Below are positions 8,166 through 42,542 of a DNA stretch of 42,542 nucleotides, in pieces. The stretch's first letter is position 1; each line of letters starts with the position of its first letter. The position numbers and the translations under genes are program-made. This stretch comes from a virus. The notes under the pieces are model-generated. The model had not been told where the DNA came from. It saw only the letters and a list, made by a program, of their open reading frames with translations, and searched no databases. The stretch lies in IMG/VR virus record IMGVR_UViG_3300045988_144595, positions 1 to 42,542 of that record, one strand, 5' to 3'.

Positions 8166-8794
8166 TCTTGCGAGTGGTCGACATAGACGCGAACACAGGA
8201 CAGATGCCGGGCATACCGGCCAATCCGCGCGAAATGGCGGAAATTGACTTTGAAACGCTAAAAACATCGATGCAACGAGATGCGGAGTATACAAAAATCA
8301 ACGAACTGATTGTATATCCGCACCAAGGCCGCTGGGTAGCGATATCGGGTAATATGCGCCTGCGTGCAGCCATTGCGTTAGGATGGGAAACAATCACAGC
8401 GAAAAAAATCCCCGAAGATACGCCGCCGGCAGTCGTTGCGAAATATATACTACTGGGCAACGCCAGCTTTGGGCAATGGGATTTCAACGCTTTGGTCGAT
8501 AAATGGTCGGCAGTAGACCTTGAGGCAACCAATATTACCGTGCCGTCCGATTTTGAGCAGCCGTCACCCGAAGACTTCGGGGACGATTTCTCGTTGCCCG
8601 AGGGCGAACAAACGAGAGAACGCACAATGACATTCACGCTCAGCGCGGAGCAATCCGACTATATCGACCGCATAATCGAGCAAGTCAAAAGCGCAGGCAT
8701 ACCAACTGGCGAATGCTTCGGCAATTCCGATGACGAAGCAAATATTATTTATGCAATTTCAAAACAATGGGACGAGCAAAAGAAATCATCATAA
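8129..8794 (+). CDS. ParB-like nuclease-domain protein 2 (tandem paralog).
   Basis: ELIVYPHQGRWVAISGNMRLRAAIALGWETITAKKIP. Collinear similarity to protein 1 (GNASFG(K/Q)WDF). Start chosen at MGKKLQQ. Confidence 0.8.
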   Translation: MGKKLQQPVESIVLRVVDIDANTGQMPGIPANPREMAEIDFETLKTSMQRDAEYTKINELIVYPHQGRWVAISGNMRLRAAIALGWETITAKKIPEDTPPAVVAKYILLGNASFGQWDFNALVDKWSAVDLEATNITVPSDFEQPSPEDFGDDFSLPEGEQTRERTMTFTLSAEQSDYIDRIIEQVKSAGIPTGECFGNSDDEANIIYAISKQWDEQKKSS

Positions 8795-9578
8795 AGGTCA
8801 TACCGGCGAGAATAGCCAATGCCTTTGTGCGAGCACATCATTACTCCGGGAAAGTCGTCAACAACAGCAGCCTTCACTTCGGTGCTTTTCTTGACGGACG
8901 ACTTCATGGCGTTCTCCAATACGAGCCAAGTATGGACAAGAGCAAAGTGCTGCCGCTCGTTGAGGGGACGGGCTGGAACGAAGCCCTCGAGCTGAACCGC
9001 ATGGCGTTCGACGATTATTTGCCAAGAAATTCAGAGTCCTTTTGCATCGGCAAAACGCTTCGCATGATTAAAAAGCAAGCGCCACACATCAAATGGGTAA
9101 TCTCGTTTGCAGACGGTGCGCAGTGCGGAGACGGCACGATATATCGCGCCTCAAATTTTGTACTTACCGGCATAAAGCCGAACAAGGCAATATATCATTC
9201 CCAAGCGGTGACCGTATCGCGAGCATGACAATAACGGCGAACTACGACAATCCTGCGATGCGCAGACAGTCGGCGTTTTTAGGCATACCGCACAAATATA
9301 GAGCTGTTGGCGAATGGATAAAACTCGGAGCAAAGCCGATACCCGGCTTCCAGTTGAGGTATATCTATTTTCTCGACAAGCGCTGCCGAGAAAAGTTGAC
9401 CGTGCCAATACTGCCGTTTTCAGAAATAGATCGAATGAATGCCGGCATGTACAAAGGAGAGAACATCGCCCAGGCAGAACGTCACGCAATTTTGACCGAT
9501 GGGCAGAAGCCAAGGCATAAAGACGCCGACAAGACAAACACCGAGCCGAACGAAGAAATCACCGAAAATGGCAAATGA
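8767..9578 (+). pseudogene. Mom-like (GNAT-fold DNA adenine-modification family) gene split by a frameshift at the (AT)3 tract 9190-9195. Part 1 is 8767..9228; part 2 continues in the -1 frame to 9578.
   Basis: N-terminal part: ANAFVRAHHYSGK...MAFDDYLPRNSESF...GTIYRASNFVLTG. Deleting one AT from ATATAT gives the continuous reading ...KPNKAISFPSGDRIASMTITANY.... Family call made from remembered motifs. Confidence 0.55.
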
Positions 9579-20953: not shown

Positions 20954-21025
20954 AGCGAGGTAGGACAACAGGCAGTCCGCCGCACAAATAGCGCGGAGAT
21001 GTGAGTTCAAGTCTCGCCCTCGCAC
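20954..21025 (+). ncRNA. tRNA-shaped element with a non-canonical anticodon loop and no encoded CCA.
   Basis: Acceptor AGCGAGG/CCTCGCA (6 bp plus an A-A pair). D-arm GGAC-AACAGGCA-GTCC. T-arm GTGAG-TTCAAGT-CTCGC. Anticodon stem CCGC(A)/(C)GCGG with loop CAAATAG, which lacks U33. Confidence 0.45.
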
Positions 21026-21055
21026 CTAATAAAACACCTAATAAAAATTGACGAT

Positions 21056-38101: not shown

Positions 38102-38329
38102 TGGTGCGTTTTCGGTGCGCCCCAAACGCACCACCGCCGTAAAATATTCATTATTAATCAATCACGCCAATTTTGCGTTTTTCGTCTGCAAAAGCCCCGA
38201 CAAAAACAAACGCACACCGATAGCAGTCGAGCGCACGCAGGTAGCGGCTTTGCAAGCGCGAAGTTAGTAATTTTTTCCGAAAAAGTGCGCGTATATGCCT
38301 GCCTTATGCTAATTTTGTGGTGCGTTTTT
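38102..38329. repeat. GGTGCGTTT motif copies in both orientations upstream of int (candidate arm-type, operator or attP region).
   Basis: TGGTGCGTTT at 38102-11 is inverted with AAACGCACCA at 38124-33. AAACGCAC at 38208-15. GGTGCGTTTTT at 38319-29. Confidence 0.35.
38310..38317 (+). promoter_or_regulatory. -7 box TAATTTTG upstream of the integrase gene.
   Basis: Matches TAnnTTTG, 49 nt before the ATG at 38366. Confidence 0.4.
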
Positions 38330-38365
38330 GTTGCGCGGAAAAAACAGCCCTCAACCAATATAGAC

Positions 38366-39499
38366 ATGCCGAAAAAAAAATACTCCAAAGAATGCGTCTA
38401 CCTCCGTCAGCGTAGCCGAGCTAATGGACTTATAGCGCTATATCTCGACATCAACACTGGAGGCCGACGCCGAAGTGAATATTTGCGGCTCTACCTCGTG
38501 CAGGAGAACACGCGCGAGGACAGAGTCAAAAACCGCGAGACGCTCAAAGTTGCGAACGCGATAAAGGCGCAGCGCATCATCGACGTTCAGCGCGAGAAGC
38601 AGGGGCTCGCCAGTAGCGGTGAACATGTATTATTTTTTGATTTTGCCGAAGCGTTTGCAAAAAAGCACACGAATGCACAGGGCGAAGTGTCTGCGCCATG
38701 GCAAAGTACGATTATCAGACTACACACATACGAGCGTCATGGAGATATTACTTTTTCGCAAATCACGCAAAAATGGGTCGAAGGCTTTCGCCGACACCTT
38801 TCTATGTCGCTATCGCGGAGGGGGAAAAACGGGCAACCATTGTCGCCCAACTCGGCTAAGTTATATTTTACCAAGCTCAAGGCCATACTCAACAAAGCCG
38901 TGGCGCAAGGCATCATCAGCAAGTCTCCGGCCTCCGCCGTCGGCAATATTAAAGGAGTAGAGACCACACGACAGTACCTCACCATTGACGAGCTGAGCAG
39001 ACTTGCCGAGACACCGTGCCGCAACAGCATACTGCGCAGAGCTTTCCTTTTTTCCTGCTTGACCGGCCTCAGATATAGTGATGTTTCCACGCTTACGTGG
39101 GGAGAGGTTCATCGGCAGGGCGATTTTACGCGCATCGTTTTCGCACAAAGAAAGACCGGCGGCCTCGAGTACCTCGACATTTCGCCACAGGCCGTGATGC
39201 TGATGGGCGACCGAGCCGAACCACAAGCCCTGGTCTTTGCCGGGTTGCCAATATTAACAAGCGCCAATTATACGCTAAGCGCATGGAGCCGCCTTGCCGG
39301 CATCGACAAACATATTACATTTCATTGCGCTCGGCATACCTTCGCGGTTATGATGCTCGACCTCGGCGTTGACATATACACAGTCAGCAAGCTGCTCGGA
39401 CACCGCAACCTTGCGACAACGCAGATATACGCAAAAGTGTTGGACAAGAAGAAGCAGGCCGCAGCATTGCTGATACCGAACATCCTACCTAACGAATAG
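38366..39499 (+). CDS. int: Tyrosine site-specific integrase (Bacteroidota phage-integrase type).
   Basis: C-terminal catalytic region ITFHCARHTFAVMMLDLG...LLGHRNLATTQIYAKV (R, HxxR, H, Y). Start set at MPKKKYSK. Confidence 0.9.
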   Translation: MPKKKYSKECVYLRQRSRANGLIALYLDINTGGRRRSEYLRLYLVQENTREDRVKNRETLKVANAIKAQRIIDVQREKQGLASSGEHVLFFDFAEAFAKKHTNAQGEVSAPWQSTIIRLHTYERHGDITFSQITQKWVEGFRRHLSMSLSRRGKNGQPLSPNSAKLYFTKLKAILNKAVAQGIISKSPASAVGNIKGVETTRQYLTIDELSRLAETPCRNSILRRAFLFSCLTGLRYSDVSTLTWGEVHRQGDFTRIVFAQRKTGGLEYLDISPQAVMLMGDRAEPQALVFAGLPILTSANYTLSAWSRLAGIDKHITFHCARHTFAVMMLDLGVDIYTVSKLLGHRNLATTQIYAKVLDKKKQAAALLIPNILPNE

Positions 39500-40992: not shown

Positions 40993-41403
40993 TTATTTGG
41001 TTTGATTTTCGATGATGGTGATGAGACGGTCGATTTGCGTATCACGCTTTTCGAGTAAGTCGAGCGTGCGTTCCGCCAACTTTCGCTGGGCGCCCATTTC
41101 TTTAAGAAAACGGTCGACATCAGCAGAAGAATTCACACTATTTCCACTGCCGTTGACATTCGGAGAATAGTCGCCGGTTGAAGATTGTTTAATGGAGGCC
41201 TTCAACATATCGCCCTCGCCACGCACCAACCACTCGTAAGACAACTCCGGGTAGGCGTGTAGAAGACTTTCTAATTTATCAACCCCGAGTGAGCCTTTGA
41301 AATTTTTTATGTAACCATTTGAAAGTCCGGCTTGCCGCTCAAATTCGGCGACAGAAACGCCCAAGCTTTGGATGTAGATAAGAAGTCTTTGTTTTAAGTC
41401 CAT
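40993..41403 (-). CDS. CI-like repressor (N-terminal HTH plus coiled-coil C-terminus).
   Basis: SVAEFERQAGLSNGYIKNFKG...YEWLVRGEGDM. Divergent from the early operon. Confidence 0.7.
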   Translation of the reverse strand: MDLKQRLLIYIQSLGVSVAEFERQAGLSNGYIKNFKGSLGVDKLESLLHAYPELSYEWLVRGEGDMLKASIKQSSTGDYSPNVNGSGNSVNSSADVDRFLKEMGAQRKLAERTLDLLEKRDTQIDRLITIIENQTK

Positions 41404-41446: not shown

Positions 41447-41477
41447 TTTGTTGTTTAGAATATCTTCCTTACCTTTG
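41447..41477 (+). promoter_or_regulatory. Early rightward promoter: -33 TTTG (41447-50) and -7 TACCTTTG (41470-77).
   Basis: 19-nt spacing. 83 nt upstream of the ATG at 41560. Confidence 0.55.
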
Positions 41478-41559: not shown

Positions 41560-41958
41560 ATGACAAAGGAAGAATTTGAGACGCGCACAGGCGCAAGCGT
41601 AACATCTGGAGAATACGCAGGAATAGAACAGATATACCTCTACGCAAAGAATATGGAAAAAGACGAGTTCTGCAGCAACCGGAAAACAAAGACCGGCCGC
41701 AGGGCGATAATGGCTGCCCTTGTCAAACAGATATATACCCTGGAAGAAAAAAACCACAATACAGGACTCATCAACGCCGAGCTCAAGGAAAAACAAGATG
41801 GAATTATCGACTTCCTGGTTGGAAGTCCGGATGCCGGCGAGATGCGGCAAAAAGCCATAGAACTCCTTGGCGACGAACGCGAATATATCCGCCGCAAGTG
41901 CGAGCGCAGCCTCCCACTTGATGACGAAGATAAAGCCGCGATACTTCGGCTACTATAA
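41560..41958 (+). CDS. Hypothetical first early protein (Cro position, no obvious HTH).
   Basis: 132-aa ORF. Confidence 0.6.
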   Translation: MTKEEFETRTGASVTSGEYAGIEQIYLYAKNMEKDEFCSNRKTKTGRRAIMAALVKQIYTLEEKNHNTGLINAELKEKQDGIIDFLVGSPDAGEMRQKAIELLGDEREYIRRKCERSLPLDDEDKAAILRLL

Positions 41959-41990
41959 GATTTTTAAGTGGTTAGAGAGACACCAAAAGC

Positions 41991-42099
41991 GCTCAGCTCG
42001 GGAGAGTGCAGGCGCCAGCCCGGAGGGACACTGCGTGCGAGAGGCAAGCTCGCTATAACGTAGAACGCGCAGGCGCCGGTTCGACTCCGGCGACGGGCA
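41991..42099 (+). ncRNA. Partial tRNA-like module: D-arm-like hairpin, anticodon-arm-like hairpin, perfect T-arm and an acceptor 3' strand.
   Basis: GCTC-AGCTCGGGA-GAGT (41991-42007). GCGAG-AGGCAAG-CTCGC (42037-53). GCCGG-TTCGACT-CCGGC-GACGGGC-A (42075-99). Only 5 nt of a 5' acceptor partner (GCCCG, 42018-22). Confidence 0.3.
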
Positions 42100-42114
42100 C
42101 AACGATAAAAGCTC

Positions 42115-42214
42115 ATATGCAAATGACAGGGGCGAGGCGCGCTGCAGAGGCAGCCCCCGAGGGACAGGCCGCGAGGCCGCACCCCGAAGCGCAAGGGGCG
42201 ACGATTTAGCATAT
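42115..42214 (+). ncRNA. Candidate four-helix (cloverleaf-topology) structured RNA.
   Basis: Closing helix ATATGCAAAT/ATTT(A)GCATAT. GGGGC/GCCCC (42129-33/42153-57). GGCC-GCGA-GGCC (42167-78, GNRA loop). CCCC/GGGG (42182-85/42195-98). Folded by eye only. Confidence 0.3.
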
Positions 42215-42266
42215 TTGTCCAAAAAAATAACATGCAATTCTTTCATCATTCTCGCCGCCCCGACAA

Positions 42267-42373
42267 CCCTCGGAAGAACGCGCGATTGTGGAATGCCGCG
42301 CGTAGGATTTTGCCGGGCATTACCTACGACCCTTAGGAAACAACGCTACGCGGTTCGACTCCGCGCCGAGGGA
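42267..42373 (+). ncRNA. 107-nt tRNA-like RNA: 7-bp acceptor helix plus a perfect T-arm, with oversized internal arms.
   Basis: CCCTCGG (42267-73) pairs with CCGAGGG (42366-72). T-arm CGCGG-TTCGACT-CCGCG (42349-65). Discriminator A at 42373. No CCA. Confidence 0.45.
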
Positions 42374-42404
42374 CACAAAAAACAACCAACAAAAAACAAA
42401 GACA

Positions 42405-42542
42405 ATGCGAAAGTACAAATTAACAGAGGATACGGTTCAAATCACGCGTAACGGCAAAGAAATAACTCTATGCCGAATTGAGGCACTCCGAGACTTCGCC
42501 AACGTGAAAGCAGGCGATAAAGGTGGCTTTATAGAAAACGAA
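42405..42542 (+). CDS. N-terminal part of hexapeptide-repeat (beta-helix-like) protein 1. The gene wraps across the window junction and continues at 2..403 (149 aa in total).
   Basis: ATG at 42405 encodes MRKYKLTEDTVQITRNGKEITLCRIEALRDFANVKAGDKGGFIENE. The frame is continuous with 2..403 after removing the 91-nt overlap. The N-terminus is homologous to the 452..967 paralog. Confidence 0.75.
   Translation, partial: MRKYKLTEDTVQITRNGKEITLCRIEALRDFANVKAGDKGGFIENE
42452..42542. repeat. Second copy of the 91-nt terminal repeat.
   Basis: Identical to nt 1-91. Confidence 0.95.

Follow-up and report, generated by a model that had tools for sequence, protein, structure and literature searches.

A structured non-coding RNA with an anticodon-less tRNA-like element in the early operon of temperate gut phages

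The viral record IMGVR_UViG_3300045988_144595 was analyzed over its whole length of 42,542 nt (the window), and the present work concerns its interval 41959-42404, which is a + strand, multi-domain structured non-coding RNA of ~420 bases lying between the first early gene and a hexapeptide gene. The phage is temperate and of the Bacteroidota type. Because the ends of the window are identical (1-92 equals 42451-42542), it represents a complete circular, or terminally redundant, genome of ~42,450 bp in circularly permuted form. Upstream of the interval, a repressor-like gene on the minus strand (40993-41403, weak PHROG match) diverges from the early operon, which is faced by the + strand sequence TTTG-N19-TACCTTTG (TTTG-N19-TAccTTTG, 41447-41477). 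This closely matches the consensus TTTG/TAnnTTTG, and we take it to be a Bacteroidota-type promoter. On the + strand there follow a gene of 132 aa (41560-41958, phrog_15742, function unassigned), the RNA, which begins directly past its stop codon, two beta-solenoid/hexapeptide genes, the first of which (phrog_5070 family, 42405-42542, continuing at 93-403) spans the circular junction, and RecE-like and DnaD/DnaC-like genes. From 5' to 3', the RNA consists of a domain with a GNRA hairpin, module b, which is cloverleaf-like, module c, which is ultra-conserved, hairpin X, which is a GC hairpin, and element a, which mimics the top half of a tRNA. An initial annotation, made from the letters of the window, had described here a cluster of tRNA-like or cloverleaf-like structured RNAs on the first lytic transcript. 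Its view was largely right, with details corrected below: the position downstream of the promoter is the same in every relative examined, and compensatory and wobble changes maintain the helices across related phages.

The absence of a credible open reading frame, also noted initially, was borne out by the relatives, in which no reading frame is conserved and the clades differ by indels of 5, 1, 2, 6, 37 and ~107 nt, frame-breaking ones among them. A small open reading frame in module c (MTGARRAAEAAPEG...) was rejected, as its start frame differs between clades. The strings quoted in the initial annotation are all present, within 2 nt of where it placed them, and some of them are unusually concentrated. 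The whole 42.5-kb genome contains two copies of GGTTCRANTCC (0.10 expected), both of which fall inside the 446-nt interval, and CCGAGGGACA, with up to 1 mismatch, occurs six times genome-wide against 2.0 expected, with three of the six copies in the RNA. Folding energy was compared with shuffled sequences and gave z values of -2.3 for element a, -0.2 for module b, -0.4 for module c and -1.5 for the whole region. Folding stability is thus only marginal and proves nothing by itself, so the case for an RNA rests on the comparison with relatives. In modules b and c and in hairpin X, G-U pairs are numerous on the + strand only, since they would be A-C on the opposite strand.

Relatives of the RNA (numbered loci, L) were collected by two routes. 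In one, the 3' end of element a served as an exact search pattern and found copies in IMG/VR and in metagenome contigs; the same pattern gave two chance matches only, both inside coding sequence, in 185,579 species genomes. The other route, independent of the pattern, used contigs encoding homologues of the 132-aa early protein (34 homologues, 53-89% identity). It yielded further RNA copies in L097, L099, L100, L101, L104 and L105, together with close relatives without the RNA, namely L098, L102, L103 and L106. In total, 16 loci, on gut viral contigs or in metagenomes, carry the RNA, and among them element a occurs in 14 distinct versions. A BLAST comparison of the kind proposed initially, in which the RNA region and a 25-kb part of the genome were matched to 50,697 phage records, gave no match to the interval and no DNA-level relative. 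Divergent copies, sought upstream of more distant hexapeptide-gene homologues, were not found there.

Element a (42267-42373, + strand) was the first module to be recognized as tRNA-like, and its 7-bp acceptor helix closing a perfect T arm was confirmed. The acceptor stem is CCCTCGG/CCGAGGG (42267-73/42366-72), and the 5-bp T arm CGCGG/CCGCG (42349-53/42361-65) carries the T loop UUCGACU (42354-60). A 4-nt linker leads from the acceptor strand into a D-like 7-bp hairpin, ACGCGCG/CGCGCGT (42278-84/42297-303), with GG in its loop; a variable insert (42304-48) follows, and a discriminator A (42373) and an invariant C close the element. RNAalifold, run unguided, returned the same three helices (acceptor stem, 7-bp hairpin and T arm). 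Pair counting found 96-97% of cells paired, none of 500 shuffles reached the covariation score, and controls with slid partners collapsed. The compensatory pairs number three and fall within the 7-bp hairpin (ACGCGCG/CGCGCGU, AUGCGCG/CGCGCAU, GUGUGCG/CGCACAC). That hairpin had been listed as one of three mutually exclusive internal helices; the other two fared less well, AATGCC/GGCATT being uncompensated and CGTAGG/CCTACG shrinking to UAGG/CCUA, present in some variants only.

The details of element a that are kept between relatives are those of the acceptor and T half of a tRNA. The strand CCCUCGR, 80-115 nt upstream and outside the search pattern, is nevertheless present in every version. 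Where G7 changes to A7, an A before the T stem changes to G, and C66 then pairs there (5 + 7 of 12 sequences). Except in L101, which has lost pair 7-66, the stacked acceptor and T stems add up to 12 bp throughout, either as 7+5 or as 6+6; a single T-stem mismatch occurs in L072. Two T-loop sequences are seen, UUCGACU and UUCAACU, position 57 being only a purine (G or A), as in tRNAs, and the loop of the D-like hairpin holds GG in every version, at the place from which a D loop would contact the T loop. In contrast to these constant parts, the segment between hairpin and T arm varies from 15 nt (L001, L099 and L104, with a total of 78 nt for the element) to ~60 nt. At the anticodon-arm position there are at least four unrelated inserts, one with a compensatory change of its own (ACAGC/GCUGU vs ACUGC/GCAGU), and the L001 and L072 types leave it empty. 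Because this segment is variable or missing between relatives, the element has no conserved anticodon arm. A covariance model of element a (R1) gave 79-114 bits for members of the family and 15-37 bits for genuine phage tRNAs; it also matched module b weakly, and nothing else in the window rose above noise.

The 5' part of the RNA opens with the conserved segment UAAGAUUUUUAAGUGGUUAGAGAGAC (41959-41988, + strand), found by alignment of relatives. Its pattern, ATARG-TTTTT-A-GGTTAG, is kept in the window, in L104, in the L002 clade and in L097, and accompanies the RNA whatever the upstream gene; it could be the 5' part of the RNA or the RNA's own promoter. Helix Pb1 (GCGCU/GGCGC, 41989-93/42011-15, + strand), with two compensatory pairs and additional wobble changes, encloses hairpin Pb2 (GCUC-GGGA-GAGU, 41996-42007, + strand). 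The latter had been read as a D-arm-like GCTC...GAGT and is actually a GNRA-capped hairpin, GCUC-GNRA-GAGU, the loop of which is GNRA in all versions (GGGA, GAGA or GUGA) and the stem of which has U-A replaced by C-G in L097.

Module b (42018-42099, + strand) is a cloverleaf-like junction, ending in A42099 followed by C, and six helices were compared across clades. It was initially thought to have no complete 5' acceptor strand, but GCCCG at 42018-22 pairs with CGGGC at 42094-98 and forms the closing helix Pb3, with two compensatory pairs and the form GCCUCG/CGAGGC in other clades. The long arm consists of Pb4 (CUGCGU/GCGCAG, 42031-36/42067-72, three compensatory pairs) and, stacked on it, Pb5 (GCGAG/CUCGC, 42037-41/42049-53, two compensatory pairs), the 5-bp stem with a 7-nt loop already quoted for 42037-53. 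In other clades Pb4 is CCGCAUG/CAUGCGG or CCGCGC/GCGCGG and Pb5 is GCGGA/UCCGC. The T-arm-like hairpin Pb6 (CGCCGG-UUCGACU-CCGGCG, 42074-92) has three compensatory pairs; the second T arm that had been described here (GCCGG-TTCGACT-CCGGC-GACGGGC-A, 42075-99) is present, with a T loop confined to the clade of the window. Over the six helices of the module b region, compensatory changes affect 13 of 31 pairs. On the 3' side of the long arm, the unpaired stretch UAUAACGUAGAAC (42054-42066) is nearly invariant, with an A-to-C change in L097 and a G-to-U change in L101 as the only differences; a site complementary to it was sought across the genome, and none was found.

In both module b and element a, a coaxial helix of 12 positions is joined to a hairpin with a 7-nt loop and followed by A-C, which is the geometry of the acceptor/T minihelix of tRNAs; in module b, Pb6 and Pb3 form this stack in all clades. 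Only element a has in addition a complete T-loop consensus and a GG loop positioned to form the tRNA elbow, and its anticodon arm is absent. The 3' trailers of the two modules are also alike within a clade (ACAAC/ACACA in one, ACGAAG.../ACGAAA... in the other). Because of this resemblance and the shared 12-position stack with A-C, modules b and a look like paralogous units. As a separate observation, GGAAUGUCGAAUGU recurs in the trailers past both modules in the L002 clade (L002 1805-1840 and 2164-2200; trailers of L082), and the D-like loop of element a in the window holds the related UGUGGAAUG; GGAAUGUCGAAUGU could be a protein-binding or processing motif.

Between these two units, module c (42129-42192, + strand) contains ~60 nt that are identical between the clades of the window and of L002. 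Its helices are GGG(G)/CCCC (42129-32/42155-58), the hairpin GCUGC-AGAG-GCAGC (42141-54), which reads GCUAC/GUAGC in L097, L099, L075 and L088, and a GNRA hairpin, GGCC-GCGA-GGCC (42167-78). The GNRA-capped hairpin had been seen initially, and in relatives its loop changes from GCGA to GAGA, remaining GNRA. A long-range pairing, GCGC/GCGC (42137-40/42189-92), varies as GCGC/GCGU and, in L075/L088, as GUGU/ACAC or GUGU/ACGC (read by hand). Because it crosses GGGG/CCCC, a pseudoknot in module c is likely. Next comes hairpin X (42195-42261, + strand), a stem GGGGCGACGA/UCGCCGCCCC with an AU-rich loop of 47 nt. Its variants GAGGCGGCGGC/GCCGCCGCCUC, GGGGCGGC/GCCGCCCC and GGGGAUGGCG/CGCCAUCCCC show several compensatory pairs and keep 8-11 bp. 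The loop ranges from 15 to ~50 nt, and the 3' end of the hairpin lies exactly 5 nt before element a in all versions. Past element a, an A/C-rich, unstructured leader (42374-42404, + strand) precedes the hexapeptide gene. Its sequence AAAAAACAACCAACAAAAA (42377-42395), probably a Shine-Dalgarno-free Bacteroidota translation leader, is repeated at 429-447 before the second hexapeptide gene and tripled in L076 downstream of 6595 (minus strand).

The versions of element a fall into about five kinds of context. Apart from the clade of the window and L097, these are the L002 clade, with other flanking genes and ~107 extra nt between modules b and c; L075/L088, in which module c has diverged and module b is absent; and L003/L076, where another GC-rich, apparently structured region of ~480 nt precedes element a. 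This last region (L003 10720-11186; L076 6709-7200, minus strand) has at least one compensatory hairpin change, CGGGU-AGC-ACCCG vs GGGG-CAA-CCCC, and gave no match in Rfam. Three unrelated RNA regions are found upstream of element a and four different genes downstream of it, and it always lies in sense orientation at the junction of RNA and open reading frame; the RNA as a whole is in all cases sense to its flanking genes, 3' of a divergent repressor gene and 5' of recombination or replication genes. L101 is a mosaic, combining modules b and c and element a of the window type with hairpin X of the L002 type. The initial annotation had named homologues with an ordinary gene in this interval as telling against an RNA; the relatives go no further in that direction than to lack the element (L098, L102, L103, L106), which shows it to be accessory and does not show it to be coding. 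We conclude that the RNA is a patchy, mosaic, horizontally shuffled accessory cassette that a small phage clade carries in its early (lytic) operon. Its surroundings vary as well: at L098 2896-3948, a hexapeptide gene of 350 aa directly abuts the first early gene, without the RNA cassette, and the hexapeptide genes among relatives vary in length (113-350 aa) and in copy number.

Known RNA classes were searched for with ARAGORN and with Rfam 15, the latter at gathering and at permissive (E <=10) thresholds in the window and five related stretches. ARAGORN called no tRNA or tmRNA in the interval, in the window (a tRNA call in its late region is described below) or in 14 related loci. Rfam returned nothing at curated thresholds and, at E <=10, only snoRNA-type noise and one partial, sub-threshold twister match in L097; RF00005 did not match within the interval even at E <=10. 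The silence of both programs on the interval, together with the variable or empty anticodon-arm position, supports the initial judgment that the modules are not decoding tRNAs. The twister candidate (RF03154) was rejected, its score in L097 being 22.1 bits where the threshold is 39.9, 36 positions of the model being absent, the window giving no match and the matching hairpin (P3) having a loop that is unconserved in the L002 clade. A hammerhead-like sequence upstream of element a in L003 (CUGAUGAG...CGAAA) was also discarded; it is unconserved in L076, its stem II is unpaired and Rfam is silent on it. A tmRNA was rejected on the ARAGORN and Rfam results, on a third acceptor pair that is C-G (no G3-U70) and on acceptor strands only 80-115 nt apart. 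The suggested likeness to Y RNAs (YrlA) was not supported, given the lack of an Rfam match, a different topology and open acceptor ends, and no Ro-like protein was found among the open reading frames scanned. The non-coding RNA arrays of UG27 reverse transcriptases, described in Bacteroides prophages, adjoin a reverse transcriptase, which they require, and two accessory open reading frames (bioRxiv 10.64898/2026.09.22.753630). Such an array was rejected, as neither a reverse transcriptase domain nor a defence reverse transcriptase model matched the early-region open reading frames of the window or the neighbours in L081; the neighbours in other loci are repressor, recombination and hexapeptide genes. 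We found no published description of this RNA family; overlap with a catalogue of 10,006 viral RNA candidates that mentions tRNA-like candidates was left unchecked.

In their substrates, RNase P, RNase Z and the CCA-adding enzyme recognize a stack of 12 bp, the T loop, the GG loop at the elbow and the discriminator A plus C. Our preferred interpretation, to which we give somewhat less than an even chance, is that modules b and a may serve as tRNA-type punctuation ("t-elements") through which these three enzymes would cut the early transcript. Host RNase P would cleave at the 5' side of C42267 (42266/42267), and RNase Z or an exonuclease, with the CCA-adding enzyme, would act past A42373 and perhaps also past A42099. 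The predicted products are a small RNA of ~165 nt, comprising module c and hairpin X, with hairpin X protecting its 3' end; a free tRNA-like RNA corresponding to element a; and a separate mRNA of the downstream gene starting with the unstructured A/C-rich leader. Punctuation would be the simplest mechanism because the features read by the enzymes are kept while the decoding part is dispensable, because a hairpin is fixed 5 nt upstream, and because a second minihelix precedes the most conserved segment. The mark by which t-elements are known, a non-decoding tRNA-like fold at a transcript junction, was found for element a in every context.

It is important to weigh this proposal against several observations that do not favor it. 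The acceptor and T stems of element a show no covariation and are invariant even in L097, whose adjoining protein is 53% identical; a signal of shape alone could drift, and the invariance therefore points to a sequence-specific constraint as well. The C1-G72 pair and the unencoded CCA are less than ideal for bacterial RNase P. The T loop of module b is missing in two of three clades, Pb6 being a 6-bp hairpin with the loop GGCAGCA in the L002 and L097 clades. The element is not needed for expression of the downstream gene, because L098, L102, L103 and L106 lack it. Finally, only about four to five independent lineages are available, so that the covariation statistics count non-independent events.

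The sequence constraint on element a would be accounted for by an alternative role in trans. In this role, the early-made top half would be a tRNA mimic that titrates, inhibits or hijacks a host factor recognizing the acceptor/T half, such as a toxin or abortive-infection enzyme modifying the acceptor end, a tRNA-directed nuclease, a synthetase, EF-Tu or the CCA-adding enzyme. The acceptor/T sequence is invariant also in loci found without using it (L097, L099, L104), in which other helices and the flanking protein diverge, and a patchy, mosaic cassette in the early region is typical of accessory counter-defence genes; the position in the early operon itself is also as expected. Nonetheless, we hold a mimic to be rather unlikely. 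The 3' half occurs in no tRNA of the 185,579 species genomes, so no specific host tRNA is mimicked over that length, no defence-related protein is linked to the element, and modules b, c and X are left unexplained. Known anticodon nucleases would not be decoyed either; the anticodon loop is absent, which makes a decoy of that kind unlikely. In a composite scheme, element a would be an RNA effector made when infection or induction begins, its invariant acceptor/T half decoying, blocking or hijacking a host enzyme or immune factor that acts on tRNA top halves, and b and a would excise the ultra-conserved ~165-nt segment of c and X as a second small RNA; such a scheme seems rather unlikely as well. 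The place of the RNA, past the first early gene, downstream of the divergent repressor and promoter and upstream of recombination and replication genes, resembles that of nutR or putR, and a cis-acting leader of the early operon might accordingly be imagined as a processive antiterminator (HK022 put, lambda nut), an anti-Rho structured spacer or a conformational switch. As a switch, it would let CCCUCGG pair alternately with the CCGAGGG of module c (42157-66) or of element a (42366-75). The CCGAGGGACA copies of both modules are conserved in the window, L002 and L097 clades, and a three-way pairing constraint would account for unvarying acceptor strands. The thrice-repeated motif of the initial annotation is indeed enriched in the interval, although its first CCGAGGG copy (42021-30) is unconserved in the L002 clade and the module c copy is degenerate in L075/L088. 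Moreover, a search of the following 6 kb turned up no intrinsic terminator on the + strand, a boxA/boxB-like element is absent, close relatives with the same downstream genes lack the element, and the invariant T arm would be unexplained, which leaves a cis-acting leader more doubtful still.

Two further explanations appear far less probable. A processed antisense immunity RNA of the P1 C4/P4 CI type, excised by RNase P from a tRNA-like leader and pairing with targets in the same operon, would share its topology with the present RNA, since both place a tRNA-like RNA in the leader of a phage operon and have short repeated motifs close by; precedents are listed in PMC5499578. However, the C4 model (RF01695) does not match even at E <=10, the conserved loops have no complementary site beyond chance on any phage transcript, the long matches being direct repeats only, and the repeated motifs are direct and not inverted; such a role is very improbable. 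A non-functional relic, either decayed tRNA genes or tRNA-derived att fragments as proposed in the initial annotation, is largely refuted and retains a very slight probability. Modules b and a do resemble paralogous units with similar trailers, like a tRNA gene array, and phages of this kind carry odd tRNAs, but compensatory and wobble changes maintain the helices and the T loop is perfect and unchanged. Furthermore, the prophage/host junction (attP) is at ~38179, 3.8 kb away, with no tRNA at the integration site, and the 3' end of element a occurs in no host tRNA among the 185,579 species genomes.

Several known systems combine parts of this architecture. In mascRNA/MALAT1 and in the tRNA-like plus pre-miRNA units of murine gammaherpesvirus 68, host tRNA-processing enzymes release both parts and a stable structure protects the new 3' end. 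The likeness lies in a tRNA-like module fused to a non-coding RNA, where hairpin X, 5 nt upstream, would be the 3'-end protector; those systems are eukaryotic and nuclear, whereas here the partner is module c with hairpin X and an open reading frame follows the element. GOLLD and ROOL are large ornate phage RNAs adjoining tRNAs, and the present RNA resembles them as a prophage RNA of several hundred nt linked to a tRNA or tRNA-like unit, with GNRA loops and pseudoknot-type long-range pairs; it is smaller and modular, has a very narrow distribution and matches nothing in Rfam. Element a shares with canonical tRNAs the T-arm positions G53, U54, U55, C56, R57, A58 and C61, the 12-bp stack, the discriminator A and a GG loop placed for the elbow. 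It differs from them in having no anticodon arm, a 7-bp "D" stem, a 4-nt instead of a 2-nt linker, C1-G72, no CCA and no call by ARAGORN or Rfam, and from the tRNA-like domain of tmRNA in lacking a tag reading frame, a series of pseudoknots and G3-U70. A precedent for the punctuation proposed above is given by plant mitochondrial t-elements, tRNA-like sequences that define mRNA ends (PMC1920247). They share with element a the non-decoding tRNA shape, the location at a junction of transcript segments and an acceptor/T half recognized by RNase P and RNase Z. T-elements are organellar, whereas element a is bacterial-viral, and has a 7-bp hairpin in place of the D arm, an absent or replaced anticodon arm and an invariant acceptor/T half. 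Among phages, the P4 CI RNA, the P1/P7 C4 RNA and the phi80 M3 RNA are RNase P substrates (references in PMC5499578). Like C4 and CI, the present RNA is a leader RNA of a temperate phage, its 5' and 3' ends are paired, and it is part of a regulatory or early operon; it differs in having no sequence or model similarity to them (RF01695), no antisense target sites and a true T loop.

If these findings hold up, they would add to the structured phage RNAs a family that Rfam 15 lacks and that comes from a poorly studied group, the temperate phages of uncultured gut Bacteroidales. They would also show that bacterial viruses use stripped-down, anticodon-less tRNA shapes, which could serve as cut marks or as mimics acting on tRNA-binding host factors. 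The idea of a non-decoding tRNA-like element is itself already documented in plant organelles, mammalian nuclei, one herpesvirus and a few Escherichia coli phage RNAs. The 78-nt version of L001, together with the insertion variants, would provide a natural minimal substrate for defining what Bacteroidales RNase P, RNase Z and CCA-adding enzyme require. Additionally, the patchy distribution of the cassette makes it a candidate for an accessory or counter-defence function carried by RNA and not by protein.

Regarding the rest of the genome, the window encodes a tyrosine integrase with Arm-DNA-bind_5 and SAM_5 domains (38285-39499), an HSDR_N endonuclease on the minus strand and, shortly ahead of the terminase region, a Mom-family protein of the DNA-modification type (8767-9228). 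An integrated prophage copy was found within a 117-kb metagenomic contig (L107). Its junction with the host (window ~38150-38200; L107 6645-6825) is just upstream of the integrase, and the integration site is intergenic, adjoining a host gene for a WG-repeat protein. The host RsgA of this contig, the one host protein checked, has its closest named relatives in Muribaculaceae genomes (~70% identity); the host genome is Muribaculaceae-like, and these are temperate phages of uncultured gut Bacteroidales.

Other tRNA-related sequences were noted in the window and in further loci. In the late region of the window (20954-21026), ARAGORN called a tRNA-Ile with the anticodon AAT, unusual in bacteria, an unencoded CCA and the acceptor GCGAGG/CCUCGC, which may be a further non-standard tRNA or tRNA-like RNA. 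A 75-nt tRNA-like sequence (CCCCTCGCTAGCCC...GGTTCGAATCCGAGGCGAGGGAC), preceded by the palindrome ATATCTACAGTAACACAACTACTATAGATAT, is identical in L005 (8365-8439) and ~45 other IMG/VR loci (L006-L071), and ARAGORN reports it as "tRNA-???" with the four-base anticodon tcaa or as tRNA-Leu(caa). A T arm with a CCCUCGG-type acceptor, over 70-152 nt and not called a tRNA by ARAGORN, is also found in L023 (2555-2639), L027 (2708-2792), L049 (2413-2539), L040 (5853-6004), L070 (2707-2858), L011 (4343-4412), L031 (6318-6387) and L059 (268-337), and these sequences may be tRNA-like elements with large inserts.

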